DNA from: Macrostomum hystrix
Lineage: Eukaryota > Animalia > Platyhelminthes
NCBI GenBank assembly: GCA_950097015.1
Contig: CATNEN010000001.1
Location: 24,614,001-24,678,000, forward strand
Direction of reading: 5' to 3'
Length of the DNA stretch: 64,000 nucleotides
Of this stretch, positions 9,268 through 40,700 are shown in pieces. Made by a program: the position numbers and the translations under genes. The notes under the pieces are model-generated. The model was not told the DNA's origin. It saw only the letters and a program-made list of their open reading frames with translations, and did not search any database. Position 1 is the stretch's first letter. Every line of letters begins with the position of its first letter.

Positions 9268-9268
9268 T

Positions 9269-9281
9269 TGGTGAGCCCGAC
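9269..9281 (+). promoter_or_regulatory. Primer binding site, tRNA-Trp-like
   Basis: TGGTGAGCCCGAC immediately follows the LTR and resembles the complement of the tRNA-Trp 3' end (TGGTGACCCCGAC). Confidence 0.7.
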
Positions 9282-9301
9282 TCTCAAACCGATAGTTTGA
9301 G

Positions 9302-10006: not shown

Positions 10007-10023
10007 ATGCCTCGACGGCCGGC
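9979..10023 (+). promoter_or_regulatory. -1 programmed ribosomal frameshift signal
   Basis: G GGA AAT heptamer in the gag frame (9979-9985), a 6-nt spacer, then a 10-bp stem GCCGGCCGTC/GACGGCCGGC (9992-10001/10014-10023). Pol is in the -1 frame and open from 9961. Confidence 0.85.
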
Positions 10024-13000: not shown

Positions 13001-13164
13001 AACCGCTGAACGACAATGAGCCCGAACCTGCCACAGCTGCGCCACCGCCACCGCCGCGGACGTATCAACCGGCAGGTCACCAGCCAAACACCGCGGCTCC
13101 TCCTGATCCGATTCAGCGTCGTCAGCTACCACCGCGCCAATGCCGGCCGACTCGATTTCGCTAA
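10003..13164 (+). CDS. pol: Pol polyprotein (PR-RT-RNase H-IN)
   Basis: LVDTGA protease, YIDD RT, DASD RNase H, HHCC zinc finger and D,D-E integrase motifs; uninterrupted 1053 aa. Confidence 0.97.
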
Positions 13165-13187
13165 TAGGCCAGCGCTAGGGGGAGCTA

Positions 13188-13395
13188 TGTGGCGGCCGCT
13201 CTCTCCAGCGCTCTGCGTGGTGCTAGGGCAGCCACCCCAACTTTGACTCGCACTTGCGCTGGGCCGGGGCAGTATGCATAGGGCTTAAGCTCATGTACAC
13301 GCGCCGGCCTATAAATCACTATCTTTTGGAACGCGCTGCACTTTACCTGTTCTTCGCCAAATAAAATTTAACTTTACGTGGCTACAATCGCCACA
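13188..13395 (+). repeat. 3' LTR (208 bp)
   Basis: Direct repeat of 9060-9267. Confidence 0.97.
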
Positions 13396-15918: not shown

Positions 15919-16738
15919 TGTTGTGCACGTGCGCTTGCACTGCTCAAGTGCACTCGCCCCCCCGCGCAACAAGTGCACTCGCAGTTGTTTTTGGCATTGT
16001 TGTTTTGGCGTTAAAGGCTCAGTGGTGTAAGCCGCTTAGCCGCCATTGTGTTGGCTGCGCGCTGGTTGGCTGGGCCGCCCTTTTTGGTCCTCGCCCCAGG
16101 CTGCCCCTCCCCCAGCTGCGCCGTGATTGGCCGGTGGGTGGCTGGGCCGGGGTGGTGGGTGGGGGTGGGGCGGGGGGGGGCCCCGGCCCTTGGTGAGCCG
16201 TGTCCTATAAAGGCGCGGCCGGGGGCGGGTGGCTGCCCCGTGCGCGTGTTCACGCTCTACAACGCCTGACTACTGTTTCCATAACCCGTCCCCCACGCAC
16301 AAATAATAACTAATAAATATCGACCACCCAGTCTGCCAGCCGCAATCAGAAGTCCGCTGCACGAAGTTGACTACACGCACGAGTGCGAGTGAACCAGAAG
16401 TAAGTCGCTGCCTTGTCTCCTTCATTTCGGGGGCTGTAGTGGGGACCGTCCGTGTGTCCTGACGCCGACTAAGGAGGGGGACTAGACCAGGTTGCCAGCC
16501 AGGGGTCACCCTGTACTGTACGCCCGCTGTACTCAGACGCCAGCTTGTGCGCCCTGACGCCCCACTGAAGGGTGATCAACATCACAGCGTCCCGACGCGT
16601 GTGCCGGCCACTTGGGTGCGTCCTGACGCCCCAGACTTAGGGTCCCGTGCGGACACTCGCGCCCTGACGCAGGCCAGCACGGGCCCGCGTACTCTGACCC
16701 TCCTAGGGGCGTCCCTCTGGGAAGTCGCGAGTACAACA
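15919..16738 (+). mobile_element. Solo LTR (820 bp) nested in the Helentron-like element
   Basis: TGTTGT...ACAACA termini, ATTA 4-bp TSD on both sides, GC-rich island with ATTGG (16126), GC boxes, TATAAA (16206) and AATAAA (16312). Confidence 0.8.
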
Positions 16739-17118
16739 ATTATTATTATAAAAACAAAGCATAGGCCCTATAGAAATATAATGCTTCTAACTTTAACATT
16801 ATAATCATTTATAGTTTTAAATCTAAAATGGATTGTTTAAATTTTTTTTCTTCATTTGTGTATTATTTATTATTCATTTTGTTATTAAAACAGCTGTGTT
16901 ATAATTGTTGTTTAAATGTGATTCCAAATCACAACAACAAAAAGTGCAATTTAAACAGGCAAATATACTTTCTTAATGCTAAACACTAGTTTGGTAAATG
17001 TTAGGAGTAGGCTTTTCAAAATATTTAGCTACATACTTCAATTGTTTTTATTGTCTAATTAGCACACATTTAGACTAGGCCTAATAAATCAATTTCTACA
17101 AATATTTATATATTTACA

Positions 17119-17679
17119 AGCGGAGAGCCTCTCCACATCGCCAAATGGGAAGTGTCACACCTATCTGACCTGATGTCTTGTTACTGTAGCGACAAACAAC
17201 AGCAGTTCTATTTGTTGTTTTTTGATTCAAACCTAGTGGTGACAGATTTGGCTGGCTCAGTGCTCCACACTGTGTGCTTACTCCAATTTGAGCACCCTTT
17301 GTGAGTAACGGGCTGTGCCAGCAAAATATTCATTCTCGGTAGCAACTCAAAACTTTTGTGCCTGTCTTCGGAGACACTGGAAGTTCAAGAGCACTCTCAG
17401 ATTCCAGTAGAAAATGTTGTCGACATCGCAGTGGTCAGTCGCCGACTGGTCGTGATGAACAAAGAGTCCGTGTATTTGATGGGACTTACTTGCAACAATC
17501 TGAATCTGCTCTGGTCTCCTGATCAACCGAGTCAAGAGCCAAAGACAAACTTAGTACGACTGGTTGGTCTCGGCTTTGGATGTTTTCTCGCTTACAGCGA
17601 TGCAAAAGAATGGCTGATGCCAGTGTCTACCGATGTTCTAGCTACGCGTACTACGCTACCATTTCCTAGCTTTGCTTAG
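17119..17679 (+). pseudogene. Captured gene-fragment-like reading frame (~185 codons, one in-frame TGA at 17302), beta-strand-rich
   Basis: The frame of ORF 17356-17679 extends upstream (SGEPLHIAKWEVSHL...LQFEHPL*VTGCASKIFILGSNSKLLCLSS...) within otherwise very AT-rich DNA. Confidence 0.45.
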
Positions 17680-19225
17680 GCCTATCTCCAGCAGAACTTG
17701 CTGTGCGGTCATTCGATGGCGATTCCGAAACTGTCGATTGTTCGAATATTTCTCGAATCGAATGCTATTTATATGCGTGTTGCTAACCGTCATGCAATAT
17801 GACGAACCGGCGTAGACGACCGGCGAGGACTAACTACCGGGTTTGTTTAATTAACGGTGAGGAGTCAGGACAGATATTTCTTCTACTGGAGTAAGTACTA
17901 ATAATTAGTAGCACTTATTATGGCTTTCTTAGAAAACTTGGCTAGGAATTTTATCATTCTGATTTCCAATTTAATATATATTTTTACCGTTGTTCACCGT
18001 TGTTTAACTACACTTTAATTTTTGTTTAAATATGCATACCCACCCCCAATTTTTGCTATAAATATATGCGCGCTGTAGGGAGAAAAACTAACTTTTGGGA
18101 GCTTAACCCAAGTTCAAGAATAAGATTTGCTGAATGCATGTGTTCTTTGAATAAAAATTGTTATAAAGAGGAAATAACAATGGGAATACATAAAACGTAT
18201 TGGAGGGCAGTTTATTATCGAGACGATAGCAAAAGGCCAGTTTTGGATAGAAATAAATATGTTGTGTTTGTCTGGTACCCTCCAATCAGTTGGAGCCTTT
18301 AAAGACTGGGTGTGATCAATAAGTATTAAAAGAATAATTCTATACAGTTAAAAGTAAGTGTCTTACCACTCGGGCACTTATGATTTGCTACCACAGTAAT
18401 TGAATTTATATTAAAGTGTTAGGCCTATACTTCCCTATAAATAGGGAAATTTTTAAAACATAACGAAAGTTGACATTTAAATAAGCATTTTTGCAGTGGA
18501 TAAATATAAGTAATTTATAAAGAATAAAAATAAAGAGAAGGGCTTTACGACAACTGGTGACGGCTGTGAGATTTTAGTAAATAGCCCTACAACACAATAT
18601 ATTGTAAAACAAGTATTTATAAGGTAGTAGGATACTAATATATAGAGTAAAAAGCGAATATAATAGCTACAGATTAAAGGCTTGAAAAAAATTCAGATTT
18701 AGATAGTGATTGCTTGGTTAAGTTGCTTTGAAATTTTTATGTCAAATTTGCCGTACGACAAAAATTTCGAATGCTATGTTAACATAGCCGATTTGAATTT
18801 TATTTTCGTGTAGAAACCATATGAAACAGAACGACTGAAATGTACAATTTGATTATTTAAAAATTATTTTAATTCAGATTTTGAAGCAACTTATTTCTTT
18901 CTTCAATTAAATTTTGTTATACAATTTATAAAATGCTTATTTTCAAAATATACCTCAAAAAGTAAGTTCAGCAGCTTTAAAAATGCGCACGTTTTTACAC
19001 TTCACGGCTCCAAAAAGTCACCATAGAAGATTTTTGCAGGACGCAAGACTTTTTACGTTACAAAATAGCACTTTTATATGCATTTTTTATTCAGTTTCAA
19101 AAGGCTTTTTAGTTATCTATTTGGTATTTTTTCTTTTAAAGATTTTTGCGAAATCAGGTCATTTTAACTTGTTACGAAACTGTGGACCCACACTTTTACG
19201 CAACGCAATGCGCATGATGTCATCT

Positions 19226-20310
19226 TAAAGCACTTGCTAAATGCTATTTATTGACACCACACTGAAGGCCTGGCATAGCATCGTTAATAAATGGCAGCGT
19301 GAAATATAGCAAAAACGCATAGTACCGGAACCTCGTAATTCGGTAAAATGTTAATAGCGTCAAAATACGAATTTTCGCACACTAACGAAGATGGCAGTCA
19401 TCTGTACGTGTTTACTGGGCACAATAGTGCTCTTGGAAGCTAAGAACCTCATAGCGAAAATTAATATATTTTCCGCCCTATGTAGTGCTCAAATGGGTTG
19501 TTTTTGCACAAAATCACGTTTTCCGATTTTGAGAGTCAATTAAAATTTTTTTTGCAACTGACAGACGTGAATGTCACTTTTTCTGAGAGTAGTCATCTAG
19601 ATGTTTCTAATAAGTACTAATATGGGTCATTCTTATGCTTCACCTATCCTTAGTATAGGTACAAAGTCATTATTTCATTTCCAGCAAGTCACGTGACCTG
19701 GCCTGAGGTGTACAACGCATCGTGCAATGCCAGCGAACATACACTCAAATTAAAGCACTTTTTAAATGCTAACTATTGACACCACACTGAAGGCCTGGCG
19801 TAGCATCGTTAATAAATGGCAGCGTGAAATATAGCAAAAAAACGCATAACACCGGAACCTCGTAATTCGGTAAATGTTATTAGCGTAAAAATACGAATTT
19901 TCGCACACTAACGAAGATAGCAGTCATCTGTACGTGTTTACTGGGCACAATAGTGCTCTTGGAAGCTAAGAACCTCATAGCGAAAATCAATAAATTTTTC
20001 ACCCTATGTGTGCTCATATGGGTTGTTTTTGCACAAAATCACGTTTTTCGATTTTAAAAGTCAATTATAACAAAATTTTGCAACTGACAGACGTGAATAT
20101 CATTTTTTCTGACAGTAGTCATCTAGGTGTTTCTAATAAGTACAAATTTTGGCTCATTCTTACGCTTCACCTATCCTTAGTATAGGTACAAAGTCATTAT
20201 TTCATTTCCAGCAAGTCACGTGACCTGTCCTGAGGTGTACAACGCATCGTGCAATGACAGCGAACATACATTCAAATTAAAGTACATCTAAAATGTAGTT
20301 CAATGACACC
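19226..20310. repeat. Internal tandem repeat, ~526-bp unit (2 copies plus a stub)
   Basis: GACACC-anchored matches at 19253, 19778 and 20305; the repeat is also present in all other copies of the element. Confidence 0.9.
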
Positions 20311-20835
20311 AAGTGCGTCGCGCTCCGGTAATCCGTTCAAAAGTTACAGGCTAAAAAGTATGTTCGATATGCAAGCCCCCCGTACCGTCGTTAAAGTACA
20401 TTTCTGTACCGGCAGCGACTTCAATAAACTAAGACGAAATTTCAAGATATACAAATTGTGCGAAATTTAGTTGTGCACCTTGCCTAAAAAGTCTGATTTT
20501 CCTAGCATGTCGTCGTTGCTTATTTTTTGTACATTTGTATCATGAAAAATGCATAAAAATAGCCTAAATCACGTTTATCGACTTTAGCAGTGTATGGCTC
20601 AGAGTCAGTGGAACGAAACGGCTCAAAATGTATTATAAACATGTAGATCTTACCTAAATGACCGCATTCATGTACTTTTTAGAACCTCGCAACAAGGTTG
20701 AATTTCCTTTATTTCGGTTCGAATACCTACCCGTCGAATATTCGAATGTAATTAACAGGTGCGAATGTACAGTTAAAGTGAGTATCTTGGTTAAAGTCGT
20801 GCGTCATGTAAGAGTCCCAGGTGCCATCGTTAGAA

Positions 20836-20883
20836 TGACGCAGCTCAAAGGTCGCGCTGACGCGCGACCTTTGAGCTGCGTCA
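20836..20883. other. Perfect 22-bp hairpin with a 4-nt loop
   Basis: TGACGCAGCTCAAAGGTCGCGC-TGAC-GCGCGACCTTTGAGCTGCGTCA; present in all five copies. Confidence 0.95.
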
Positions 20884-21296
20884 GTTGAAAGTTAAAAAAA
20901 ATGTGCATTTTTTGACACTTAAAAAACACACTTTTACAGAATTACCTATCAAGGTAAGCATTTAGCGGAAAATAACCAATCAGTGTCTTGAAGGTCTAAA
21001 AATTCGCCAAAAGTTGGGTTCAATCAATTTTTGACTCCATATTGTGAATCCTTATTTTTTAAGATTCAAGATTTCGATGGGTCTAAAAAAAGTCACTTTT
21101 TTGTTGCCATGGCAACCAAGACGCGTTGCTATGGAACTTTCACGTCACTCATCTTGTAGCCCTAAATGTTTTACGTCCATAGAGGGGTCACACATGGTTT
21201 CATCTCAAGTGGTTTTAATTGTGCATCAATTTTATTTTCTAAAACGTTGATTTTACGTTGGGGGAGTCTCCGGGCAATCTTATATCGGTCTCGTTT

Positions 21297-21369
21297 GTCC
21301 GGAAAAATTGCCAACGAGGAGCTACGCTCGCTTCGCTCGCTTCGCTCCTCGTTGGCAATTTTTCCGGAC
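21297..21369. other. Perfect 26-bp terminal hairpin with a GCTCGCTTC-repeat loop
   Basis: GTCCGGAAAAATTGCCAACGAGGAGC - TACGCTCGCTTCGCTCGCTTC - GCTCCTCGTTGGCAATTTTTCCGGAC, directly abutting the subTIR at 21370-21382. Confidence 0.95.
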
Positions 21370-21384
21370 TGCACTTCGACCTAA

Positions 21385-24300
21385 CTAGATTGAAGGTGTG
21401 CCACCTTAGCAGGTCGAAGTGCATTAATATTGCTTAATATTTCGAAATTATTTTTTACTTCTGATCATGTCACCCAATAAAATGAACAAAAACCTTTGTA
21501 AATATTTTAAAACTTAGCGGCCTATTTGTACTGAGGATACTGACTGAAGCACTTTAATAAAGCAGACTACTGCATCAAAAAATCGCCCCCTACCTCCAAT
21601 CGGACCTACATATGGAGGGAGGAAAGCGATTTTTTAGTTTTTATTAGGGAACATAATTGAAAACAGCGGGAGGGAGCGTGGAGAATCGGAGAGTGAGAGA
21701 GACAGTAGATCTATCTACCTATGCCCACCTGTCAAAAACGTAAACAGATAATTAAAGGAAAGATGATCCACAAATTTTTATCCAAAACAGCACTTGTTTT
21801 GTACATGCAACAACACGAACGGGCAGACACACACACGAGCGGTGCCATCAAGCCACGTTACCATATATATTAATATTTAATTAATTAAAATGCTCAGTTA
21901 TTCAACTCGAATCACCAGGATGGACAGGTTGGAACATATTTAAATACTAAATTAATTTATAATTTAGATGTTGCGTTACTTCAGTACGTAGGATATAATT
22001 AATGGGACCGAACATATTTGTTATTCACTAAGCATGGTAACTTTAAAATGCATATAATAAATATAATAATTTTACGTTGTACCAGCGATTATTGAGACTT
22101 TTATATAGTACAAAATTAGGATTGATGATGACAGACTGAAATGCGTTGCACTTTAAAAAGTACTTGCCTACTTTAAAGTACGCACTTTAAAAGAATACCA
22201 GAGTACTCTATTGCTACGCCCTTAAAGACTACCAGAGTACTTAAGAGTGCTTAAAGAGTACAGTGTGAAAACACTGCCTTAAACAGAAACTGGGTTCGAG
22301 GAACGAAGACAAGAACTTTAGTTTTAATTAATAAAAAATATATTAAAAGCAGCGAGATGAAGCCCCGTTTAACAGTCAGCTGCAGCTACTGGCCTTCCCG
22401 ACCAGCCCCCCTCTCAATATCGTTAGCGCTGGTAGCGGCAGCAGCGCCAGCAGCAGCCGCCCCTTGGTTGGGGTTGCAAAAGTCGCTCGCCGCGCTAGCA
22501 GCAGCCGCCCCTTGGTTGAGTTGCAAAAGTCGCTTGCCACGCTAGCAGCAGCCGCCCCTTGGTTGAGTTGCAAAAGTTGCTTGCCACGCTAGCAGCAGCC
22601 GCCCCTTGGTTGGGGTTGCAAAAGTCGCTTGCCATGCTAGCAGCAGCCGCCCCTTGGTTGGGGTTGCAAAAGTCGCTTGCTACGCTAGCAGCAGCCGCCC
22701 CTTGGTTGGGGTTGCAAAAGTCGCTTGCCACTCTAGCAGCAGCCGCCCCTTGGTTGGGGTTGCAAAAGTCGCTCGCCGCGCTAGCAGCAGCCGCCCCTTG
22801 GTTGGGGTTGCAAAAGTCGCTCGCCGCTAGACTTGAAAATCGAACCCAGTAACATTAATTAACACTGTATACAAAGGTCTCAGAAATAATAAAATAATAC
22901 TCATAATAGAAAATCTTAGACATTCTGTATATTTGGATTACAAATTGTAAAGAGAAAAATCGGAAAAATACAATATATGCTATTGGTAGAAAAATACCAT
23001 GTAATCAATATATTTAGAATTCAATAATAAAAACAATAAAATATTGTTTATTAATTATTGTGCAACTGGGCTAAGTAGCATAGCTGGCAATGGTAATAAT
23101 TACAAAGTTGAAAGTGAACATGCTACCTCAATTAATTTTACATTTAACGTAAAAATAATCTTACAATGAACAACAGAATTAGTTTTTAAAAACGGTTTGG
23201 CACTCCAATTCTGTTTACTATAATTTAAAATGATATTTTCCAAGACATTCAGCATTAAAAGTACAGACTTTTAATACCCACAGGTAAGTAAAACCACTGG
23301 ATACAACTTTGCAGTGAAATGCATTGCCATTCAATAAAAGTTACCCAACATTAGGTAGGTGTAGCCTGATCATTTAGCTAAGTCCAAAATTAGACACAAC
23401 AGCTTTTTAAAAATGCAAAACAAAACAAATCAATCAATCAATATCAAAATCAATGTTGAGAGAAAAATACTGCTGTGTCAAAAACAAAAAGCGTTGAACA
23501 TTTAACTAACCTCATGGTACAATGAGACTTACAAAGCAAACAACAATATTTTTATAGAAATTTTAGACAGTAAAAATATTTTACACTGTGGAGGTTAATA
23601 AATGCTACTCACATTTTTAAGGACTTTCACTGCACAGTTTGTAGGCAGTGCTGTGCGCAATAATTTATTCACAAAATTGTATTTAAGCTGCCAAAAGGCA
23701 AATTTGTGCACAGCACCCACTCAATAGTGTTTATTTTTTAAAAAGAATACTTAAATTGTATCTCAAGCAAACATAAGCTTTCTAAGTGCTTTGCTTATAG
23801 AAATTCAGCAGCCATTGCAGTGCAAATTGCTCGCCAAAAGGCAATAAATTGACAAAAGGCAATTAATCACCAAAAAGGCAAATTGTGCATTTCATGTGCT
23901 TTGCTCATAGGAATTCAGCGACCATTGCAGTGCACATTGTGCTATTAATCACCCAAGGCAATTAATCGCAAAAAAGGCAAGTGGTTTTCTTTCTAAGTGC
24001 TTTGCTTATAAGAATTCACCAGCCATTGCTGCGAATTACACTATAAATCACCAAAAGGCAATTAATTGACAAAAAAGCAAATGGTGTATTTCAAGAGCTT
24101 TGCTTTGATAAAAATTCAGCAACTATCGATCACAAAACTGCATTATTGCATTAAACTGCTAAGAATCTCATTCAATACTTAAACGTATCTGCTTAACCAT
24201 TCAAAAAGTAAAGACAGTTTGAATAATAAAAATAATTGCTTACTTGAGTCTCTAAAAAATTTATAAAAAGTCAACGAACATCAGACAGCGAGCTTTATAC

Positions 24301-27178
24301 ATCAGTTAGTATTTAAAATAAAATTAGAAGCTTAGACTTACAGTGTAAAATTGATAACAATTGAATATATTACAATTAAAACTTGAAGAATATAATATAT
24401 TGTACAATAATTATATATAAGGTAGTAGGATACAAATAAATAGCTTAACAAAACCGAATATTATAGCTACAAATTGAAGCTTGAAAAGATTTCAGATTTA
24501 GATAGCGTTTGATTGGATAAGTTGCTTTGAAAATTTGAGGTCAAATTTGTCCTACAGCAATTAAACTATTGTAAACATAACCGATTAAAAATTATTTTTT
24601 TGTAGAAATTATAAGGAACAGAACGACTGTAATGTACAATTTCATTATTTAAAAATGCTTTTTTCAGTTTCTGAAGCAACTTATTTTTATTATTATTAAA
24701 TTTTGTTATACAATTTATAAAATGCTTATTTTCAAAATATGCACTCAAAAAGTAAGTTCAACAGCTTTAAAAATGCGCACGTTTGTACACTTAACGGCTC
24801 CAAAAAGTCACCATAGAAGCTTTTTGCAGGACGCAAGAATTTTTACGTTACAAAATAGCACTTTTGTGTGCATTTTTTATTCAGTTTCAAAAGGCTTTTT
24901 AGTTACCTATTTGGTATTTTCTTCTTTTAAAGAATTTTGCGAAATTAGGTCTTTTTAACTTATTACGAAACTGTGGACCCACACTTTTACGCAACGCAAT
25001 GCGCATGATGTCATCTTAAAGCACTTGCTAAATGCTATTTATTGACACCACACTGAAGGCCTGGCGTAGCATCGTTAATAAATGGCAGCGTGAAATATAG
25101 CAAAAAAACGCATAGTACCGGAACCTCGTAATTCGGTAAAATGTTAATAGCGTCAAAATACGAATTTTCGCACACTAACGAAGATGGCAGTCATCTGTAC
25201 GTGTTTACTGGGCACAATAGTGCTCTTGGAAGCTAAGAACCTCATAGCGAAAATTAATATATTTTCCGCCCTATGTAGTGCTCAAGTGGGTTGTTTTTGC
25301 ACAAAATCACGTTTTTCGATTTTGAGAGTAAATTAAAAATTTTTTTTGCAACTGACAGACGTGAATGTCACTTTTTCTTAGAGTAGTCATCTAGATGTTT
25401 CTAATAAGTACTAATATGGGTCATTCTTATGCTTCACCTATCCTTACTATAGGTACAAAGTCATTATTTCATTTCCAGCAAGTCACGTGACCTGGCCTGA
25501 GGTGTACAACGCATCGTGCAATGCCAGCGAACATACACTCAAATTAAAGCACTTTTTAAATGCTAACTATTGACACCACACTGAAGGCCTGGCGTAGCAT
25601 CGTTAATAAATGGCAGCGTGAAATATAGCAAAAAAACGCATAACACCGGAACCTCGTAATTCGGTAAATGTTATTAGCGTAAAAATACGAATTTTCGCAC
25701 ACTAACGAAGATAGCAGTCATCTGTACGTGTTTACTGGGCACAATAGTGCTCTTGGAAGCTAAGAACCTCATAGCGAAAATCAATAAATTTTTCACCCTA
25801 TGTGTGCTCATATGGGTTGTTTTTGCACAAAATCACGTTTTTCGATTTTAAAAGTCAATTATAACAAAATTTTGCAACTGACAGACGTGAATATCATTTT
25901 TTCTGACAGTAGTCATCTAGGTGTTTCTAATAAGTACAAATTTTGGCTCATTCTTACGCTTCACCTATCCTTAGTATAGGTACAAAGTCATTATTTCATT
26001 TCCAGCAAGTCACGTGACCTGTCCTGAGGTGTACAACGCATCGTGCAATGACAGCGAACATACATTCAAATTAAAGTACATCTAAAATGTAGTTCAATGA
26101 CACCAAGTGCGTCGCGCTCCGGTAATCCGTTCAAAAGTTACAGGCTAAAAAGTATGTTCGATATGCAAGCCCCCCGTACCGTCGTTAAAGTACATTTCTG
26201 TACCGGCAGCGACTTCAATAAACTAAGACGAAATTTCAAGATATACATATTGTGCGAAATTTAGTTGTGCACCTTGTCTAAAAAGTCTGATTTTCCTAGC
26301 ATGTCGTCGTTGCTTATTTTTTGTACATTTGTATCATGAAAAATGCATAAAAATAGCCTAAATCACGTTTATCGACTTTAGCAGTGTATGGCTCAGAGTC
26401 AGTGGAACGAAACGGCTCAAAATGTATTATAAACATGTAGATCTTACCTAAATGACCACATTCATGTACTTTTTAGAGCCTCGCAACAAGGTTGAATTTC
26501 CTTTATTTCGGTTCGAATACCTACCCGTCGAATATTCGAATGTAATTAACAGGTGCGAATGTACAGTTAAAGTGAGTATCTTGGTTAAAGTCGTGCGTCA
26601 TGTAAGAGTCCCAGGTGCCATCGTTAGAATGACGCAGCTCAAAGGTCGCGCTGACGCGCGACCTTTGAGCTGCGTCAGTTGAAAGTTAAAAAAAATGTGC
26701 ATTTTTTGACACTTAAAAAACACACTTTTACAGAATTACCTATCAAGGTAAGCATTTAGCGGAAAATAACCAATCAGTGTCTTGAAGGTCTAAAAATTCG
26801 CCAAAAGTTGGGTTCAATCAATTTTTGACTCCATATTGTGAATCCTTATTTTTTAAGATTCAAGATTTCGATGGGTCCAAAAAAATTCACTTTTTTGTTG
26901 CCATGGCAACCAAGACGCGTTGCTATGGAACTTTCACGTCACTCATCTTGTAGCCCTAAATGTTTTACGTCCATAGAGGGGTCACACATGGTTTCATCTC
27001 AAGTGGTTTTAATTCTGCATCAATTTTAGTTTCTAAAACGTTGATTTTACGTTGGGGGAGTCTCCGGGCAATCTTATATCGGTCTCGTTTGTCCGAAAAA
27101 ATTGCCAACGAGGAGCTACGCTCGCTTCGCTCGCTTCGCTCCTCGTTGGCAATTTTTCCGGACTGCACTTCGACCTAA
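21385..27178 (-). mobile_element. Helentron-like element, copy B (5794 bp; diverged subfamily with different cargo), head-to-tail with copy A
   Basis: Same termini. ~1 kb and ~2.8 kb arms are homologous to copy A with substitutions; the middle (~22370-24400) is unrelated to A. Confidence 0.8.
22450..22828. repeat. 48-bp minisatellite (~8 copies) inside copy B
   Basis: Unit GCAGCAGCCGCCCCTTGGTTGGGGTTGCAAAAGTCGCTTGCCACGCTA. Confidence 0.93.
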
Positions 27179-27959
27179 CTAGTGACTAACTTGAATTTTA
27201 GAATCTCTGTTTAATCGGATGCATCTATTTTTTAGCAATATATGATTAAAAAATAGTTGGTTATAATTCTATGCCCAACTCACTGCTTCTTTATTTTAGT
27301 TTTATACTTTCTATATAAAATAAATGTAAATATATAGAGCTACCTATATTACATATAGACCTACTAGCTATGCCTAGACCTAGTTATATGTTTATCAATA
27401 ATCAAGACAGTATCTATCTTGTTAAGAATTGACAGTTTTTATACTTAATGAAATGTATGAATCTAAGCAAATGATTTAATTTTAAACCAAGCTTGTTCTC
27501 TCTTGTTTTTAGACTTTAGCTTATTTTAGCTATTTTGACATTATCTTTACATTAGCTAGTTTTTCCAGTATTTATTAAACAATGATAGCTATTTGCTCTG
27601 ATTTTGTCAAGATGTTCTTATTTCTATTTTCTATTATTTAATGAAAACAATGGCATAATTGGCTAGGGGCCTGAAGGGTTTTTTCTAAAAAATTTGGCTT
27701 TTTTTTAAATCCTATCACAGAGCCCTCCAATTCCCATTTGTGTGCACCCCTAAATCCCTATTGGCACCACCCAATAAAAAAAGCTTAATAACACCCCTGA
27801 ATTCATGTAATTCTTTTATTAACAAGGATTTATTTACCTTTATTGAATTTGGTAAAGCTTTGTGCCATGCCTGAAACTCAGTTTTCTGTTTAGAAAAGGA
27901 AAAAACTGTGGTCCTTTTATCCTTTGTGTCACAATTACTTTTTCATTGTGGTGCATGAT

Positions 27960-31223: not shown

Positions 31224-31291
31224 AATTCTTGGTTCTCATCATCATCATCAGTCCTTTTCTCGCCTCGCGGCGTGGACGCTCTGCCGCCGAC

Positions 31292-33934
31292 TCACTGGCA
31301 GGTCTTTCGATGTCTGGCCATGTTCGTGCGGGCCAGCATCCTCCCGCAGTCCGGGCACGGAGCTCTGGCGCTCTTGTAGATCCGCGCCGTAATCCCCGTC
31401 GTCTGCTGGCCTCTCCCCGTTGGTACTGCTGCTTCTTCTGCCCTCTCGTCCGGTGTCGCGCCCGCCTCTGGCTTCCTTCCGTTCTCCTTGCACCGTTTCC
31501 TATGCCGCGCGTGATTGGACTTGCTTATCCACTTGTTGCACTCTCCGCAGTGGACTTCTTTCGCCGATCGCTCCTCTCCTCCGCACCTCTTCTGGTGGTT
31601 TTTTCTTGTCGCCTCCGTGAAGAAGGTAGCGTTGCACTTTAGGCACGGCAGCGGTGTCTTCGTAAATTGATGGTGTATCCTCCGTTGGTGTACGGCTAAC
31701 CCGGCTCTCGACGCGCACACCTTCCCGCAGTTCTCGTAATTGCACCTGTACCCGGTCAGCTCCGATTCCACTTCTCCGGCTTCTCTTTCCTGTGCTGTTT
31801 CTTCCTCAGTCGTCTCTGCTTTCTTTCCTTTCTTCCTCTCGCTCTCCTCCAGCGCTCTTTCCCTGATGCGTAACTTCTTTCTCCAAGCCTCTCTATCGGT
31901 CACCAGCCTTTCGACCTCCAGCTCATCGATTTCTGCCGTGCGCAGTAGCTTTCTCCATACCGAGATGATGGTCTGCCTTCTCTTCCGCGCTTTCTTGATG
32001 GTAGTCAGCTTCTTGCTCCAGCCGAGGACACATCTTTTGACGGTGCTGGTATCCGGGAGTCTGAGTACGTGGCCTAGCCTGCGCCAGTGGGCCGATTCGA
32101 CTTTGGCGCCGATGCTTCGGACCCGCAGTTCGTTCCGCACGTCCCACATGTTCACTTTTTTTCTCTCCATTTCTTTTAGCGGTGGTTCGGTCTTGCTGCT
32201 CCACACGTACCGATAACGACGGTCCATTGCCTGCTGCATCCGCTTAATTTCCGACTTGTGGAAGGGCCGGGCGCCTGCATTGAAGAGCATCGTGCTCTCA
32301 ACACAGGTCTCTATGATCCTAGCTTGGGTGCGTTTGCTTAGTCGTGTTTTGCGTAGCATGCATTTGACTCCCGCCCACGCTTTGGCAGCTCTCTGCAGCC
32401 GCTGGGCGGTGTCCTGCTTTCTGCCGATCCAGGTGCCCAGTATCCGGATGTTCTGACTCTCAGGTGTTCCTAGCTTAGCTCGCTCTTCCTTCTCATCGTT
32501 CGTCCGTTCTTCTAGGATTCCGATGGTCTCGATGACGGTTCTCGTCCCTTGCTCGATTTCCTCGGATCCCCCGACAATAGTGGTGTCGTCAGCGAACAGT
32601 ACTTCTGTGATTGTTATCTCCGCCGCTTCTTCGTTGTAACCTCCCATCTTTTTAGGCGGTAAGCATTTGCCCGGTCGGCAAACCCACTTGATTCCGCATT
32701 CGGCCCCGGTGTTCTTCGCTTTTTCCATGCGCCTCTCTTTTGCTATCCGTATCGCCGTCTGGTGATAGATGTTGAAGAGGATAGGCGATGTGGCGCAGCC
32801 TTCTCTCAGCCCGAGTTGTGGGTAAAATTCGGAACTTGTCTCTGCGCCGCACCGTACCGTGTACGCGGTGTACTCGTGCAGGTCTGCCAGCTTTTTTATC
32901 GTGTGCTCCGGCATGTGCTGATGTTTCAGCAGTTCCCAAAGAGCCGGCTTGTTTACCCGCGGGTAGGCCTTCTTAAGGTCTAGCAAGACTAGGCTGGTAT
33001 CCATCGACTCTGCCCATTCTGGGCTCTCTCTGATCTTCTCGGCGTCCTCGTTCAGTCTGAGTATGATCTGGGTCGCATCCATAGTGGACCGGCCGCTCCG
33101 GAAACCGAACTGGTTGTCGTCTAGCAGACCCATGTTCTCCGTCCATGAGCTCAGCCTCGTCGCCAGTATCCGAGCGAGTATCCTGCTTGCGACTGGTAGG
33201 AGGCAGATCCCTCTGAAATTATTTAGGTTCGCCCGATCGCCTTTCTTGTGGAGTGGTATGATTACACCTACTTTCTGGTCCTCCTCCCAGGTGTCCGCTG
33301 GGTTGTTCCAGATGTAGTGCACTGCTTTCCGGACCTCCGTTTGGGCCATTGCGCACGCGCTGGTGATGTAGCGCATTCGGATGCCGTCTAAGCCCGGGGC
33401 CCCGTCTTTGATCTTTTTGATTTCGTCGTCGATCTCTTTGTTTGTTAGTGGTCTGGACAGCCGGTCATTGGCTTCCTCTATCGTAGCCTTGTCTACGCTT
33501 GGCTTTGGGGCTGACCTAATTAGATTGAGCATTTCCTCCTGGTCGTTCTCGAACCGTTGCTCCTGGATCTTTGACAGGTGTTCCTTGAAGTCTTCCGCCG
33601 TGAACAGTGGTACTGTTCTGCTGTTGTTCTCATTTTGCTTTGTGTTCCTGCCCATCTTCCGCAAACAGTCGTACATCCCAGCCACGTTTCCCGTGTCGCA
33701 GTTCCGCTTGCACTCTTCGGCAATCTCCATCCACCACTGTTCCATCCACTCTTGGAGTTTCTTCTTCTGCTTTCCCCGCTTCTCTTTCAGCCCTTGTGTG
33801 GCTCGGGTCAAGGCCACCGTCCGCTCTTCTACTGTTAGGGTCCCTTCGGGTGACTTCTTAACTCGGTTGCGGGCGCTCAGGGCGTGCTCCACTTCTTTGT
33901 TTCTGCCAGCTCTTCTTCGTGCCCTACCATCCAC
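31292..33934 (-). CDS. LINE ORF, RT plus C-terminal zinc fingers (frameshifted from the APE part near 33890)
   Basis: QFGFRSGRST, LDLKKAY, GLREGCATSPILFNIY, LFADD, WRRLGHVLR and several C-x2/4-C...H/C fingers. Confidence 0.92.
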   Translation of the reverse strand: MDGRARRRAGRNKEVEHALSARNRVKKSPEGTLTVEERTVALTRATQGLKEKRGKQKKKLQEWMEQWWMEIAEECKRNCDTGNVAGMYDCLRKMGRNTKQNENNSRTVPLFTAEDFKEHLSKIQEQRFENDQEEMLNLIRSAPKPSVDKATIEEANDRLSRPLTNKEIDDEIKKIKDGAPGLDGIRMRYITSACAMAQTEVRKAVHYIWNNPADTWEEDQKVGVIIPLHKKGDRANLNNFRGICLLPVASRILARILATRLSSWTENMGLLDDNQFGFRSGRSTMDATQIILRLNEDAEKIRESPEWAESMDTSLVLLDLKKAYPRVNKPALWELLKHQHMPEHTIKKLADLHEYTAYTVRCGAETSSEFYPQLGLREGCATSPILFNIYHQTAIRIAKERRMEKAKNTGAECGIKWVCRPGKCLPPKKMGGYNEEAAEITITEVLFADDTTIVGGSEEIEQGTRTVIETIGILEERTNDEKEERAKLGTPESQNIRILGTWIGRKQDTAQRLQRAAKAWAGVKCMLRKTRLSKRTQARIIETCVESTMLFNAGARPFHKSEIKRMQQAMDRRYRYVWSSKTEPPLKEMERKKVNMWDVRNELRVRSIGAKVESAHWRRLGHVLRLPDTSTVKRCVLGWSKKLTTIKKARKRRQTIISVWRKLLRTAEIDELEVERLVTDREAWRKKLRIRERALEESERKKGKKAETTEEETAQEREAGEVESELTGYRCNYENCGKVCASRAGLAVHQRRIHHQFTKTPLPCLKCNATFFTEATRKNHQKRCGGEERSAKEVHCGECNKWISKSNHARHRKRCKENGRKPEAGATPDERAEEAAVPTGRGQQTTGITARIYKSARAPCPDCGRMLARTNMARHRKTCQ

Positions 33935-35322
33935 GGGTTCGTCTGTCTCGTCTTTGGGCCGCAGATTTCTCTCGCGGCTTCAAGCATCGTTTGTTTCGTC
34001 GTTTCCCAGTCGGTCTCGCCCTTTCCAGCTAGCACTTCCTCCGTCTTTTTTCTGTATAGTTCGCGTACGCCGACATCGCGGAGCCGGTCCCAGGCGATTT
34101 CGTTTTTTTGGTTTTTTGGATACTTCCTGGTTGGTTCCGCGCATCTCTCCGCGAATCTTCTCTTCAGGGTGATGACCTTCGGTAGGTGGTCGGACCTCGT
34201 ATGGTGATTCGGATCGTGGTCGGTCCTGATGCTCCCGATGATCCGGTGTCTCTGCTCTTTCTTGGTGATGAAGCCGTCAATCTCGTACCATTGGTGTGAC
34301 CTCGGGTTCCGCCAGGTGCCTTGCTTCTTCTGCCTGTAGAAGGTGCTCGCCCATGCCAGGCCTAGGCTTTCTAGCCAAAGAAGTAGGTCTTCACCCTGTT
34401 GGTTCGTTGGTCCGATTCCATAACGGCCTGTGCTCGAGAGACGGTGCACTCCGCTCCCAACGCTGGCGTTGAAATCTCCACCGATGATTAGTACAGCCTT
34501 CTTTGCAAAGGTGTTCAGCATCCTTTCGATTTCTTCTCGGATCTCATCCACTTCTTCCTCGTACTCTTTACCCTTCTTGACCGGTTGGTATATGGCTACC
34601 AGGATCACTCCGCCTATTTCCAGCGCAAGTGTTCGTTTCATCGGGTGCATCTTCCTCCCAGTTTCGTTCCACATTGTCCAGGCTGTTTCTCCCAGAAGCA
34701 TTCCCACCTTCTGGGAGTGGACTAGGTGCATCTCTGCTTCTCTGTGATGGTAGCTTCTGATGCCAACGCCAGGTGTGTCAAGTTCGGATAGGAGGGTGAC
34801 GTCCCATCCCTTTCCTATCGCGTACTTAACGACCTCGCCGAACCTTCCGCTTCCTACGTTCGCTCTGCGCATATTCCACGTCGCTAGCTTTATGTCGTTA
34901 TTGTGCCACCTCTCATTTGCCCTCCTGGCCTTCTCTCTAGCTTTCCTATCTCGTACCTTTTTTCGTCGTGTGGTTCGTCTGAGCTTCCGTGCCGTCTTTT
35001 GTGCTGGACGCCTCGGTCCTGGGTTCTTTTCGATGGTCTCGAGCGCTCTGCTGATTTCAGCCCTTCGCCTTTCCTTGCTTTCTGGGTACGTGCAATTACT
35101 CTCTTCCTTGTTCGCTTCATGCTCCTTCTTTTTTTTGTTTTTTTTTGATATTTTCCGCAGCAGTTCCTCACTCTCTCTCTCACTTTCGGCAAAGCTTTCA
35201 ACCTTACTGTTGTTTCGAGAGGTGCCTGGGTCGGTTAGGTCCAAGCCACTCTGTTGCGAGGAGGTTTGCCCATAGACCGCGGCTGTTACGCCGAGGCTAC
35301 GGGCCTCTCTCCCCCCCCCCCC
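33877..35322 (-). CDS. LINE ORF N-terminal part: 2A-like motif plus AP endonuclease
   Basis: LATWNM, LLSE, GGDFNA, EIDGF and SDHLP APE motifs; TIEKNPGP upstream. No ATG before the APE domain, so the start is uncertain. Confidence 0.85.
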   Translation of the reverse strand, partial: GGGGREARSLGVTAAVYGQTSSQQSGLDLTDPGTSRNNSKVESFAESERESEELLRKISKKNKKKKEHEANKEESNCTYPESKERRRAEISRALETIEKNPGPRRPAQKTARKLRRTTRRKKVRDRKAREKARRANERWHNNDIKLATWNMRRANVGSGRFGEVVKYAIGKGWDVTLLSELDTPGVGIRSYHHREAEMHLVHSQKVGMLLGETAWTMWNETGRKMHPMKRTLALEIGGVILVAIYQPVKKGKEYEEEVDEIREEIERMLNTFAKKAVLIIGGDFNASVGSGVHRLSSTGRYGIGPTNQQGEDLLLWLESLGLAWASTFYRQKKQGTWRNPRSHQWYEIDGFITKKEQRHRIIGSIRTDHDPNHHTRSDHLPKVITLKRRFAERCAEPTRKYPKNQKNEIAWDRLRDVGVRELYRKKTEEVLAGKGETDWETTKQTMLEAAREICGPKTRQTNPWMVGHEEELAETKKWSTP

Positions 35323-35413
35323 GATTCTGCTTTGCCAACCGGGTTGCTCCGGTTGCCCGCTTGGCACCGCGTGTTGACGGCACGCTTCGTGGAGGTGCAG
35401 AATCTTGCCAAGC
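35323..35413 (-). ncRNA. HDV-like self-cleaving ribozyme at the LINE 5' end
   Basis: P1 GCTTGGC/GCCAAGC, P2 GATTCTGC/GCAGAATC, P3 ACC/GGT, P1.1 CC/GG, P4 CAACCGG/CCGGTTG and J4/2 GCAAA with the catalytic C, all in canonical nested order. Confidence 0.85.
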
Positions 35414-35423
35414 TTAATCTTGC

Positions 35424-36271
35424 AATTCTTGGTTCTCCACGGATTCCATGCTGGCATCGTCCTCGTCATCCATCGGCTGTGGCGACTGCTGCGACGGCTG
35501 CGGCTGTGGCTGCTGGTACAGAGGCTGCTGCTGTGTCGGCTGTTGCTGCGATGGCTGGGGCTGCTGCTGCTGCTGCGACGGCTGCGACTGTGGCTGCTGG
35601 TACAAAGGCTGCTGTGGCTGCTGTTGCTGCGATGGCTGGGGCTGTTGCTGCGACGGCTGCGGCTGTAGCTGTTGTTGAAAGTCAGTTCGATATCGGTACT
35701 GAATCGGTACCCTTTGCGCCTTTGGAGCTATTGGACGACCTTTAGGCTGTGGCTGCGGCTGAGGAACCGGCTTTGGGGCTATTGGCCGCTGTCCGGCCAT
35801 ACGTCGGCCCGGCTCCTGGCTCGGCGCAGCAATGACTTTGGTGGATCTAGCTCCTTCCATTCGTCCATCCTGAGCAGCTTCCGCTTCTGCCACCGGCGCA
35901 ATCGCCTGCTGCCGGAGTAGATTTACTCTCGTGGTAGCATCGAGGAACACTGGCAGTCTTGAACTGGGCAGCTTTCTCTTACTGGCGACTCCTTCCTGTA
36001 CCGATGTGGCAGCTCGCTTCTGGCTGTTTGCCCTCGACTGCTGGCCAACCATAGACGGTTGCGTCCTCTGCCGCAATGGCGCCTCGAGTTCTTCCGACTC
36101 ATCGATAATTGCTTGAACAATATCTACTTCGCCATCTCCGGCTTCCTTATTCTTAGTCTGCTCTGCTCTGTCAGGTTCGACATTCTCGCTGTCCGAAAAA
36201 TCCACGGTAACAGCTTCTAATAGCTTCTCGAATTCACTTACGCTCATGGCGGCTTCTTTATCTTGTTCCAT
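35424..36271 (-). CDS. N-terminal part (acidic, then Q/P-rich repeats) of a ~396-aa ORF downstream of Gypsy pol, split by the LINE
   Basis: ATG at 36271 (MEQDKEAAMS...); continues in frame into 31223-30881 once the LINE is removed (848+343 = 1191 nt). Confidence 0.75.
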
Positions 36272-36546: not shown

Positions 36547-37750
36547 CTAGATCTGTAAATTCCCAAGTATACTGAACATGGTGGCAAGCCTCTGCAAATA
36601 GCCTTCAAACCTCGCGGGGGGTCTGATTTGTCTGCGCGGACGGCTTGTCACTCCTTCCCTTTCTTCAATCTGTGCAATGTACATGCCTCCTTCTGAGGTG
36701 GCTGTTGCCAGACCCTCAGCTGTCCCTTCGCTTTCGCTCTCCTCTTCACTGCTCGTAGCCTCAGGCTCGGTGTGTGATTCATCCTCCACTTCTATCTCAG
36801 CTCCTAGTTCCAAATCTTCTCCATTAATTTCACTTGGGTTTCTCTAAAATGACATTGCCATTCTAATCTGTCTTCTTCCTCTTCGGATTCATCTTCCTCT
36901 GTTAGAACAAATCTTCCCTTCTCCTTCGGCTGGCTTCCCCTAACTTTGACCTCTGTCTTCTTAGCTTTCTTCTCTGGTGCGGCCTGGCTTCCCCTAATTA
37001 ATTCCTCTTGGGTCGAATTAGGCACAATAGTTATGTTGTCTCTATGGACAATCATGACATTGCCCACTAGTTGTCCTTGCTCCTCCTTTTGCACACGAAA
37101 CACTACATCTGAGATTTGCTCTATTACTCTGAAGGCTGATCTCTTTTTCCTATGAAATTTGTGAGATTCCTCACTGTCCAACTGTGGATTATTAATCAAC
37201 ACAAGACTTCCAACTGGGACTGTCTTAGGCAATTTGCTGTTTTTCGCAGACTCTTGTCTGTTACTGACAACCTTCTCCAATTTTCTTTTGACAATGTCTC
37301 TCGCAATCTTCAATCGTGCGGCATGTTCTGTCACATAAGATGGATAACTGGCGAATGACTTTGGTTGGCTGATTTGACTGTCCATAGGCAATACTGCTTC
37401 CCGTCCAAATAACAGGTAGTGGGGAGTAAAGCCTGTGGTTTTGTTCACACTAGTGCGGACAGCAACTAATGCAGCTGGGATCATAAGGTCCCAATCACTG
37501 TGATCTTTCTCAATGAGACAGGTTACTATTGATTTAATTTGCTTGTTAAATCTCTCCACCAATCCATTGCTTTGGGCATGGTAGGGTGTTGTAAACGTAT
37601 GCTTCACGTTATACATTTCGCAAAAAGCTTTGAACTGCTTGCTAGCGAATGCCTTGCCATTGTCTGTGTGTAACCACTGACATTGCCCATACTCTGCGAA
37701 GATTCTTTCCTGTAAGATTTTGATCACAGTATCTGACTTTTGATTTCTAG
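36547..37750 (-). pseudogene. pol: Gypsy integrase C-terminal half (element 2), with a frameshift near 36810
   Basis: [37 protein letters not shown]; terminal RPRRQIRPPARF in a second frame. Joins FAFPTR at 44641 across copy C. Confidence 0.9.
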
Positions 37751-40700
37751 TTAGGTCGAAGTGCAGTCCGGAAAAATTGCCAACGAGGAGCGAAGCGAGC
37801 GAAGCGAGCGTAGCTCCTCGTTGGCAATTTTTCCGGACAAACGAGACCGATATAAGATTGCCCGGAGACTCCCCCAACGTAAAATCAACGTTTTAGAAAA
37901 TAAAATTGATGCACAATTAAAACCACTTGAGATGAAACCATGTGTGACCCCTCTATGGACGTAAAACATTTAGGGCTACAAGATGAGTGACGTGAAAGTT
38001 CCATAGCAACGCGTCTTGGTTGCCATGGCAACAAAAAAGTGACTTTTTTTAGACCCATCGAAATCTTGAATCTTAAAAAATAAGGATTCACAATATGGAG
38101 TCAAAAATTGATTGAACCCAACTTTTGGCGAATTTTTAGACCTTCAAGACACTGATTGGTTATTTTCCGCTAAATGCTTACCTTGATAGGTAATTCTGTA
38201 AAAGTGTGTTTTTTAAGTGTCAAAAAATGCACATTTTTTTTAACTTTCAACTGACGCAGCTCAAAGGTCGCGCGTCAGCGCGACCTTTGAGCTGCGTCAT
38301 TCTAACGATGGCACCTGGGACTCTTACATGACGCACGACTTTAACCAAGATACTCACTTTAACTGTACATTCGCACCTGTTAATTACATTCGAATATTCG
38401 ACGGGTAGGTATTCGAACCGAAATAAAGGAAATTCAACCTTGTTGCGAGGTTCTAAAAAGTACATGAATGCGGTCATTTAGGTAAGATCTACATGTTTAT
38501 AATACATTTTGAGCCGTTTCGTTCCACTGACTCTGAGCCATACACTGCTAAAGTCGATAAACGTGATTTAGGCTATTTTTATGCATTTTTCATGATACAA
38601 ATGTACAAAAAATAAGCAACGACGACATGCTAGGAAAATCAGACTTTTTAGGCAAGGTGCACAACTAAATTTCGCACAATTTGTATATCTTGAAATTTCG
38701 TCTTAGTTTATTGAAGTCGCTGCCGGTACAGAAATGTACTTTAACGACGGTACGGGGGGCTTGCATATCGAACATACTTTTTAGCCTGTAACTTTTGAAC
38801 GGATTACCGGAGCGCGACGCACTTGGTGTCATTGAACTACATTTTAGATGTACTTTAATTTGAATGTATGTTCGCTGTCATTGCACGATGCGTTGTACAC
38901 CTCAGGACAGGTCACGTGACTTGCTGGAAATGAAATAATGACTTTGTACCTATACTAAGGATAGGTGAAGCGTAAGAATGAGCCAAAATTTGTACTTATT
39001 AGAAACACCTAGATGACTACTGTCAGAAAAAATGATATTCACGTCTGTCAGTTGCAAAATTTTGTTATAATTGACTTTTAAAATCGAAAAACGTGATTTT
39101 GTGCAAAAACAACCCATATGAGCACACATAGGGTGAAAAATTTATTGATTTTCGCTATGAGGTTCTTAGCTTCCAAGAGCACTATTGTGCCCAGTAAACA
39201 CGTACAGATGACTGCTATCTTCGTTAGTGTGCGAAAATTCGTATTTTTACGCTAATAACATTTACCGAATTACGAGGTTCCGGTGTTATGCGTTTTTTTT
39301 GCTATATTTCACGCTGCCATTTATTAACGATGCTACGCCAGGCCTTCAGTGTGGTGTCAATAGTTAGCATTTAAAAAGTGCTTTAATTTGAGTGTATGTT
39401 CGCTGGCATTGCACGATGCGTTGTACACCTCAGGCCAGGTCACGTGACTTGCTGGAAATGAAATAATGACTTTGTACCTATACTAAGGATAGGTGAAGCA
39501 TAAGAATGACCCATATTAGTACTTATTAGAAACATCTAGATGACTACTCTCAGAAAAAGTGACATTCACGTCTGTCAGTTGCAAAAAAAATTTTAATTGA
39601 CTCTCAAAATCGGAAAACGTGATTTTGTGCAAAAACAACCCATTTGAGCACTACATAGGGCGGAAAATATATTAATTTTCGCTATGAGGTTCTTAGCTTC
39701 CAAGAGCACTATTGTGCCCAGTAAACACGTACAGATGACTGCCATCTTCGTTAGTGTGCGAAAATTCGTATTTTGACGCTATTAACATTTTACCGAATTA
39801 CGAGGTTCCGGTACTATGCGTTTTTGCTATATTTCACGCTGCCATTTATTAACGATGCTATGCCAGGCCTTCAGTGTGGTGTCAATAAATAGCATTTAGC
39901 AAGTGCTTTAAGATGACATCATGCGCATTGCGTTGCGTAAAAGTGTGGGTCCACAGTTTCGTAACAAGTTAAAATGACCTGATTTCGCAAAAATCTTTAA
40001 AAGAAAAAATACCAAATAGATAACTAAAAAGCCTTTTGAAACTGAATAAAAAATGCATATAAAAGTGCTATTTTGTAACGTAAAAAGTCTTGCGTCCTGC
40101 AAAAATCTTCTATGGTGACTTTTTGGAGCCGTGAAGTGTAAAAACGTGCGCATTTTTAAAGCTGCTGAACTTACTTTTTGAGGTATATTTTGAAAATAAG
40201 CATTTTATAAATTGTATAACAAAATTTAATTGAAGAAAGAAATAAGTTGCTTCAAAATCTGAATTAAAATAATTTTTAAATAATCAAATTGTACATTTCA
40301 GTCGTTCTGTTTCATATGGTTTCTACACGAAAATAAAATTCAAATCGGCTATGTTAACATAGCATTCGAAATTTTTGTCGTACGGCAAATTTGACATAAA
40401 AATTTCAAAGCAACTTAACCAAGCAATCACTATCTAAATCTGAATTTTTTTCAAGCCTTTAATCTGTAGCTATTATATTCGCTTTTTACTCTATATATTA
40501 GTATCCTACTACCTTATAAATACTTGTTTTACAATATATTGTGTTGTAGGGCTATTTACTAAAATCTCACAGCCGTCACCAGTTGTCGTAAAGCCCTTCT
40601 CTTTATTTTTATTCTTTATAAATTACTTATATTTATCCACTGCAAAAATGCTTATTTAAATGTCAACTTTCGTTATGTTTTAAAAATTTCCCTATTTATA

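Follow-up and report, generated by a model that had tools for sequence, protein, structure and literature searches.

A 25-nt L3 loop with a predicted hairpin in an HDV-like ribozyme fold at the 5′ end of a young LINE family

HDV-like ribozymes are known at the 5′ ends of R2, L1Tc, Baggins and RTE elements (PMC6765202). The release of LINE RNA by a ribozyme is an already-known role. In these ribozymes, L3 counts as an invariable component of the HDV catalytic core with a length of 7–8 nt, which published searches build in as a constant. L3 of the genomic HDV ribozyme comprises U20–U27 (PMC1874588), and it is 7 nt long in the CPEB3 and HDV antigenome ribozymes (bioRxiv 2022.09.22.508989). The L3 core TYYHCG and the J4/2 sequence CNRA are elements of a published descriptor (PMC4870747, supplement). 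A reverse wobble between U20 and G25 was described as crucial in HDV (PMC6326823), and the G25A mutation has a cost of about 3000-fold (PMC1874588). The role of C75 as general acid and the rule of a 6–7-bp P1 with a G1-pyrimidine pair have also been described (PMC6326823, PMC4908430). Large HDV-like ribozymes of the drz-Agam-2-1 type add a peripheral helix to the HDV core; in drz-Agam-2-1 itself the added domain lies in J1/2 and was shown to speed cleavage (PMC4908430).

We analyzed a stretch of 64,000 nucleotides from Macrostomum hystrix (the window). The first-pass annotation had described 91 nt of its minus strand as an HDV-like ribozyme with perfectly paired helices and a 25-nt L3 containing its own hairpin. 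We located these 91 nt at 35413–35323 and found the full HDV-type double pseudoknot (Table 1). All 27 of the 27 core pairs are Watson-Crick, and L3 indeed comprises 25 nt, with a predicted hairpin of 5 bp. The features that define membership of the HDV-like ribozymes are present, namely the helix order P1, P2, P3, P1.1, P4, the G1-pyrimidine pair, TYYHCG and CNRA. Double-pseudoknot topology, TYYHCG, CNRA and a predicted cleavage at the first base of the element are shared with the published HDV-like ribozymes, but their L3 has 7–8 nt whereas the one described here has 25 nt and a hairpin. As in drz-Agam-2-1, a peripheral helix is added to the core; however, J1/2 is only 2 nt long here, and the addition is predicted in L3.

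A search with a relaxed L3, as proposed in the first-pass annotation, was performed on both strands of the 64-kb window. When L3 was allowed to vary from 6 to 40 nt, the sole match was the ribozyme at 35413–35323; with an L3 of 6–9 nt, nothing was found in the window. In 2161 simulated 64-kb windows (first-order Markov, composition-matched, both strands) the relaxed descriptor had 0 matches. A control descriptor with G in place of C gave one match, again at the same site, with J4/2 read one base longer. The published RNArobo L3 element (TYYHCG + 0–1 nt + Y) permits 7–8 nt and therefore cannot match a ribozyme with a 25-nt L3. Rfam scores were below the gathering cut-offs as well, with 25.0 bits for RF00094 (cut-off 50) and 22.5 bits for RF02682 (cut-off 44), so that the earlier suspicion that standard descriptors miss this ribozyme was borne out on both counts. 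The Rfam alignment covers the whole core and places 19 nt directly past the G25 equivalent, where RF00094 has 2 nt and RF02682 has 1. At E up to 3, Rfam also left the ribozymes of six related loci undetected, indicating that the low score of the window ribozyme does not result from the insert alone. The HDV-type fold at 35413–35323 is real and family-wide, and it escapes the standard patterns checked.

Table 1. Coordinates of the ribozyme, the LINE and its insertion site, in positions of the window
Feature	Position	Strand	Remark
HDV-like ribozyme fold, 91 nt	35323..35413	-	predicted cleavage 5′ of G35413, the family 5′ end
P1 5′ strand, 7 bp, G1-C pair	35407..35413	-	partner 35359-35365
J1/2, 2 nt	35405-35406	-	
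P2 5′ strand, 8 bp	35397..35404	-	partner 35323-35330
P3 5′ strand, 3 bp	35394..35396	-	partner 35366-35368
Catalytic L3 core UCCACG, intact	35388..35393	-	published TYYHCG element and Rfam alignment
U20 equivalent	35393	-	
P1.1 5′ strand CC	35392-35391	-	
G25 equivalent	35388	-	
19 nt past G25 equivalent	35369..35387	-	AA and predicted 5-bp hairpin with 7-nt loop
L3 hairpin stem (predicted)	35385-35381 with 35373-35369	-	
P1.1 3′ strand GG	35357..35358	-	2 bp, CC/GG
P4, 7 bp, 6-nt loop	35336..35355	-	
J4/2 CAAA	35331..35334	-	C35334 is the C75 (general acid) equivalent; fits CNRA
G12 run directly 3′ of ribozyme	35311..35322	-	9-11 G in other copies
N-terminal region and APE-type endonuclease (PF14529)	33877..35274	-	
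2A-like (StopGo-like) motif TIEKNPGP	35014..35037	-	upstream of endonuclease
Reverse transcriptase (PF00078) and four C-terminal zinc-finger-like motifs	31292..33979	-	
Short 3′ UTR	31238..31291	-	shared end at 31248, then trinucleotide tail
Junction filler of window copy, 10 nt	35414..35423	-	first 8 nt repeat ribozyme nt 6-13
14-bp target-site duplication, 5′ copy	35424..35437	-	empty site in run X1
14-bp target-site duplication, 3′ copy	31224..31237	-	

In HDV, U27 is extruded and can be deleted. The extra bases of the window ribozyme occupy the place of HDV C26–U27: UCCACG comes first and the insert follows after the G25 equivalent, leaving the catalytic bases undisturbed. Shuffling the 19-nt insert gave a Watson-Crick hairpin of at least 5 bp in 2.4% of cases, which puts the hairpin by itself only modestly above the chance expectation. 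Two CACG repeats flank the insert, and the 5′ arm of the stem is the reverse complement of the second repeat. Without the 18 nt between the repeats, the remaining 7 nt form a canonical L3. The repeats and the reverse-complement arm suggest a fold-back duplication during reverse transcription; judged from this pattern, the insert likely arose on the lineage of the window element by fold-back or template-switch duplication. In the titles and abstracts searched, we found no L3 hairpin in HDV-like ribozymes, although a published example of an L3 insertion may exist. L3 length is not addressed in the excerpts of PMC9901934, PMC10879173, PMC11331408, PMC12846837 and PMC12338488.

A private mutation of one copy, an assembly error or a chance fold might also produce a long L3, and the Rfam scores under the gathering cut-offs are in line with such an origin. 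Copies were compared as collapsed contigs of sequencing runs, of which six were examined (X1, X2, X3, X5, X9, X11). Most of the element is present in 20 of 24 listed runs (9 studies); in run X3, although listed with the element, no element contig was found. In the contigs of the other five runs, which carry three organism labels, the ribozyme shows no substitution (X1, X2, X9, X11, X5), and the 7-nt L3 that the first-pass annotation had considered for other copies is absent from them. All 14 differences of the X5 contig lie outside the ribozyme. The lack of substitutions in five runs indicates that the long L3 is a family trait and not private. Six lineages with homologous folds in the corresponding position (see below) further contradict an accidental origin, and the five substitution-free runs together with the 0 matches in 2161 simulated windows refute it, leaving it a negligible probability. 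Over about 4.2 kb, the differences between the copies number at most 14 bases; the family is therefore young, and fixation of the hairpin reflects inheritance and is no proof of selection on it.

The ribozyme had been placed at the 5′ end of a LINE, with its predicted cleavage site 10 nt from the target-site duplication. This distance was confirmed, and the family 5′ boundary lies at G35413. Five junctions from five runs (X1, X2, X5, X11 and one X9 unitig) fall exactly at 35413. Two X9 unitigs have their junction two or three bases upstream of 35413 with a shared AA, and a third X9 unitig with the shared AA aligns on to 35423 with 3 mismatches. One X11 junction lies 4 nt inside the element (35409). 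The X5 contig, possibly of RNA origin, extends 16 nt past G35413, which carries no information on cleavage; among the runs listed with the element, none was recorded as RNA. The flanks of the other copies differ from the window flank and among themselves. As these different flanks meet the element at G35413 or a few bases from it, the family begins with the first base of the ribozyme, and as the flanks differ between copies, the 10 nt beside the duplication are filler of the window copy and lie outside the element. In Drosophila R2, each insertion makes its junction additions anew, because cleavage removes the earlier ones before they can be passed on (PMC3774820). A contig of run X1, whose sample may be related to that of the window, represents the empty site, which confirms the 14-bp duplication and shows that the insertion is polymorphic. 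The boundary at G35413 and the substitution-free ribozyme in the contigs of five runs support the earlier interpretation of the locus as a structural variant. At the 3′ end, the tail consists of TGA repeats in the window copy and of an AGA/GAA repeat in X9. Purine-rich trinucleotide tracts (GAT, GAC, GAA, CAA repeats) that resemble the elements' own tails are preferred as insertion sites; such tracts were seen in the flanks of run contigs and in the 5′ flanks of related metagenome loci (L010, L011, L015, L019, L022–L028), and the tails differ between copies.

A protein search yielded 244 matches, and identity was at most 45% among the 120 listed. Of 31 metagenome loci found, 19 were scanned upstream of the endonuclease match. 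A strict descriptor recovered no relatives, while relaxed versions did: an HDV-like core is present in 11 of the 19 loci, belonging to five lineages. L3 has 9 nt in L003/L004 and in L011/L019, 7 nt in L010, 8 nt in L017 and 7 nt in the divergent L022/23/24/25/28. L032 represents a partial sixth lineage with an L3 of 7 nt, in which P2 was not resolved. Protein identity of the six lineages to the window element is about 36–45%, and in all 12 related loci with the fold L3 measures 7–9 nt. The core is missing from 8 of the 19 loci, including L002, L018 and L021 with short or truncated 5′ regions and L005, L029 and L031 without a fold. The remaining two of the eight (L009:1-40, L015:11-50) start like the L003-type ribozyme and have lost the 3′ half by internal deletion. 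Additional short-helix matches (L018, L019, L029, L031) and an AT-rich match in L032 were attributed to chance.

Paired changes among the lineages were found in P3 (A-U/G-C, C-G/U-A), in P1.1 (CC/GG, UC/GG, UU/AA) and in P1. The published L3 string matches 0 of the 6 related lineages, indicating that this descriptor is narrow. Past L3 position 6 the relatives have 1–3 nt and the window ribozyme has 19 nt; the variation among the relatives marks a length-tolerant site. L003 and L004 share their sequence from G1 on and differ upstream, and thus have the same 5′ boundary. L011 has the same P1 5′ strand and L3 core as the window ribozyme. Unusual features were observed elsewhere: P1 has 6 bp in L010, L017 and L032, and L022:41-126 (also L023, L024, L025, L028) combines a C at position 1 with a UU/AA P1.1 and the L3 UUUAAGG. 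In a FastTree phylogeny built from query-anchored columns of APE and RT, with 14 loci and 16 proteins and with L031 as the root, the window element is sister to a clade of L003/L004 and L011/L019 with a support of 1.0; deeper nodes are weakly supported. From the short L3 of the relatives and this tree position, the long L3, and with it the hairpin, was likely derived on the branch of the window element. As to compensatory changes in the hairpin, the copies are unchanged, and the nearest other loci have no hairpin and proteins that are 45% (RT) and 40% (APE, full matches) identical; for the endonuclease, a representative library contained nothing closer, its best full match being 40% identical. 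No relative between near-identical copies and 45% protein identity was found. The viral contigs searched contained no relatives, and the genome contigs contained two loci, one of them useful. Searching the viral contigs for the L3 core with a 0–28-nt gap returned 83 stretches, none of which has a complete HDV fold. L032, a family member on a contig titled as a Bacteroidia MAG, is surrounded by AT-rich DNA of eukaryotic appearance and likely reflects a contaminated bin.

A single ORF without RNase H defines the RTE clade. The window element has an APE-type endonuclease and a reverse transcriptase, a target-site duplication and no terminal repeats, and is thus an APE-type non-LTR retrotransposon. 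The window copy is frameshifted: it lacks 4 bases at 33900 that the X1, X9 and X5 contigs carry, and because of this its endonuclease frame ends at 33877. The presence of these bases in the contigs indicates that the family has one ORF. No Pfam match to RNase H was obtained in the element. The single ORF, the lack of RNase H and the short 3′ UTR with a microsatellite tail constitute an RTE-type architecture. RTE-clade LINEs have the same single APE-RT ORF without RNase H, the very short 3′ UTR and the copy-variable microsatellite-like 3′ repeats, and the 14-bp target-site duplication compares with theirs (PMC6007223). Membership of the RTE clade is plausible from architecture and tails; look-ups in clusters, the protein atlas and the PDB returned neither a clade name nor a named reference RT.

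A difference from RTE elements is the 2A-like motif of the window element: the abstract of PMC3708506 lists 2A for Rex1, Crack, L2, L2A, CR1 and Ingi and not for RTE. The element also resembles L1Tc/Ingi in having one ORF with C-terminal zinc fingers, a 2A-like sequence ahead of the APE domain and a compact ribozyme at the 5′ end whose J1/2 is short (PMC4035085, PMC3708506). Unlike L1Tc, which has RNase H activity (PMC4035085), it shows no RNase H match, and it differs from L1Tc/Ingi in its trinucleotide tails. A further difference is a T instead of D in its 2A-like motif; in the wider family, TIHP is frequent there. Of the 77 homologues (among the 120 listed) whose N-terminus is long enough, 74 have an NPGP-type motif. 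It is mostly non-canonical, T[IV]HPNPGP or TIExNPGP, and the canonical D(V/I)ExNPGP occurs in the sister clade; the loci examined for the motif were L003, L005, L010, L011, L017 and L029. The string HPNPGP was not found in the main text of PMC12846837, PMC3708506 and PMC12338488.

No in-frame AUG precedes the endonuclease in 35413–34872. A non-AUG codon may serve as the start of translation, as has been suggested for R2 and L1Tc RNAs headed by a ribozyme. Since the length of the G run varies between 9 and 11 in other copies, the reading frame likely starts 3′ of the run. An upstream ORF of 12 codons, out of frame, was noticed after the G run (35273-35235, minus strand).

We also predicted how the insert folds. 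With P1, P3 and P4 imposed, the 5-bp L3 hairpin has a probability of 0.99. An alternative 7-bp hairpin between the insert and the 3′ strands of P3 and P1 has −7.6 kcal/mol, compared with −5.2 kcal/mol for the 5-bp form, and in the pseudoknot-free ensemble its probability is 0.67 versus 0.23. Three mutually exclusive pairings were predicted in the nested ensemble (0.23, 0.67 and 0.22), and the 7-bp form is ahead in transcription prefixes of 48–52 nt, until P1 closes. Such pairings could make the insert a switch or timer, with the 5-bp hairpin as the on form and the 7-bp hairpin as the off form; cleavage would then be delayed, or the 5′ end would refold after the cut to allow translation. L1Tc was proposed to change its structure after cleavage (PMC4035085), and the lack of an in-frame AUG ahead of the endonuclease would agree with a refolded 5′ end. 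However, alternatives are common in pseudoknot-free predictions of GC-rich ribozymes, non-native nested optima were also found in two of the three relatives tested, and the sister lineages manage with a 9-nt L3. We therefore give a switch or timer a low probability. Native helices beat the best nested fold by 9.1 kcal/mol, and by 6.2 kcal/mol without the insert; the margin is 3.9 kcal/mol for L011, 7.3 for L003 and 8.0 for L017, all of these being rough values for which native helices were summed and the pseudoknot penalty was left out. The insert thus need not destabilise the native fold.

For the window copy, pairing of host flank and filler with the 5′ strands of P1, P2 and L3 was predicted. 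Poor cleavage of this copy may result, even if the family as a whole is active. Its −1 base is A, and in HDV a −1 A is slower than U or C (PMC1874588). In drz-Agam-2-1 constructs, a 1-nt J1/2 spacer gave little activity and spacers of 3–7 nt gave more (PMC4908430). The insert might even have broken the ribozyme, leaving a crippled relic whose 5′ end is now set by an overlapping internal promoter. L3 is part of the catalytic core (PMC4908430) and short in every related locus with the fold, and in copies as young as these decay would not yet be visible. Pr77 of L1Tc offers a precedent for a promoter that occupies the bases of a ribozyme (PMC4035085), and AA precedes G1 in three X9 junctions and in the window copy. 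Against such a loss of function speaks the flawless state of the 27 core pairs and of the catalytic letters, which surpasses that of several relatives. The insert also leaves the catalytic bases untouched, and new copies with G1 ends and polymorphic insertions continue to arise in the family. On balance, we consider a relic unlikely.

The reading that we favour, and regard as fairly probable, is an active release ribozyme with a tolerated peripheral hairpin that would cleave 5′ of G35413. The Watson-Crick helices, the catalytic letters and the lack of chance matches in the simulated windows argue for it, as does the G1 boundary, which recurs across insertions and in the relatives L003/L004. 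A precise 5′ end could, however, also come from an internal promoter, Pr77 of L1Tc being promoter and ribozyme at once (PMC4035085). The 7-bp alternative hairpin that dominates the pseudoknot-free ensemble, the J1/2 of only 2 nt and, in the window copy, the flank pairing and the −1 A weigh against activity too. As an active ribozyme, the fold would self-cleave 5′ of G35413 and free the element RNA from host read-through transcripts. C35334 would act as general acid, and U35393 and G35388 would form a reverse wobble as in HDV. The hairpin at the position of U27 would point away from the active site; it would be tolerated and might stabilise the P3 arm. The cut RNA would then be translated without an upstream AUG into a 2A-like peptide and an APE-RT-zinc-finger protein, and copied by target-primed reverse transcription. 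At the next cleavage round, additions at the junction, for example the 10-nt filler of the window copy, would be removed.

The LINE interrupts a Gln/Pro-rich ORF (36373-35424 and 31237-30881, minus strand) that spans 430 codons from stop to stop at the empty site. This ORF lies just downstream of a Gypsy-type integrase (36804-37892), and run X1 holds diverged paralogues. It probably belongs to an LTR element, which could be the source of a read-through transcript. Further mobile DNA was observed in the window. Tandem units of about 10 kb, 99.9–100% identical, occupy 37745-64000, with inverted copies at 14495-21389 and 24394-27182; each unit holds a Gypsy-type protease-RT-RNase H, which points to recent amplification or an assembly effect. 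An apparently intact Gypsy-type element (9060-13395, plus strand) contains a DUF7041 gag-like ORF and pol between identical 208-bp terminal repeats (9060-9267, 13188-13395). Two long near-perfect palindromic hairpins (37767-37837 and 38239-38314) at the edge of a tandem unit gave weak miRNA-model matches.

A bolder proposal, which we put forward tentatively and with more doubt than confidence, is that the site just after G25 is a third natural site for peripheral domains beside J1/2 and P4. A hairpin would have been gained there independently more than once at LINE 5′ ends, actively stabilising or gating catalysis, and the 91-nt, all-Watson-Crick version would be a minimal natural example of a class missed by descriptors with a 7–8-nt L3. 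The window ribozyme is well suited as a test case because it is short, perfectly paired and part of a young polymorphic family, and its sister lineages, e.g. L011, supply natural short-L3 controls. If it is active with its hairpin-bearing 25-nt L3, the structural definition of HDV-like ribozymes would widen, surveys would have undercounted them, and a new insertion site beside the active site would become available for engineering. If the family is RTE-like, it would add one more clade to the LINEs that bear a 2A sequence, here in the form of a putative motif.
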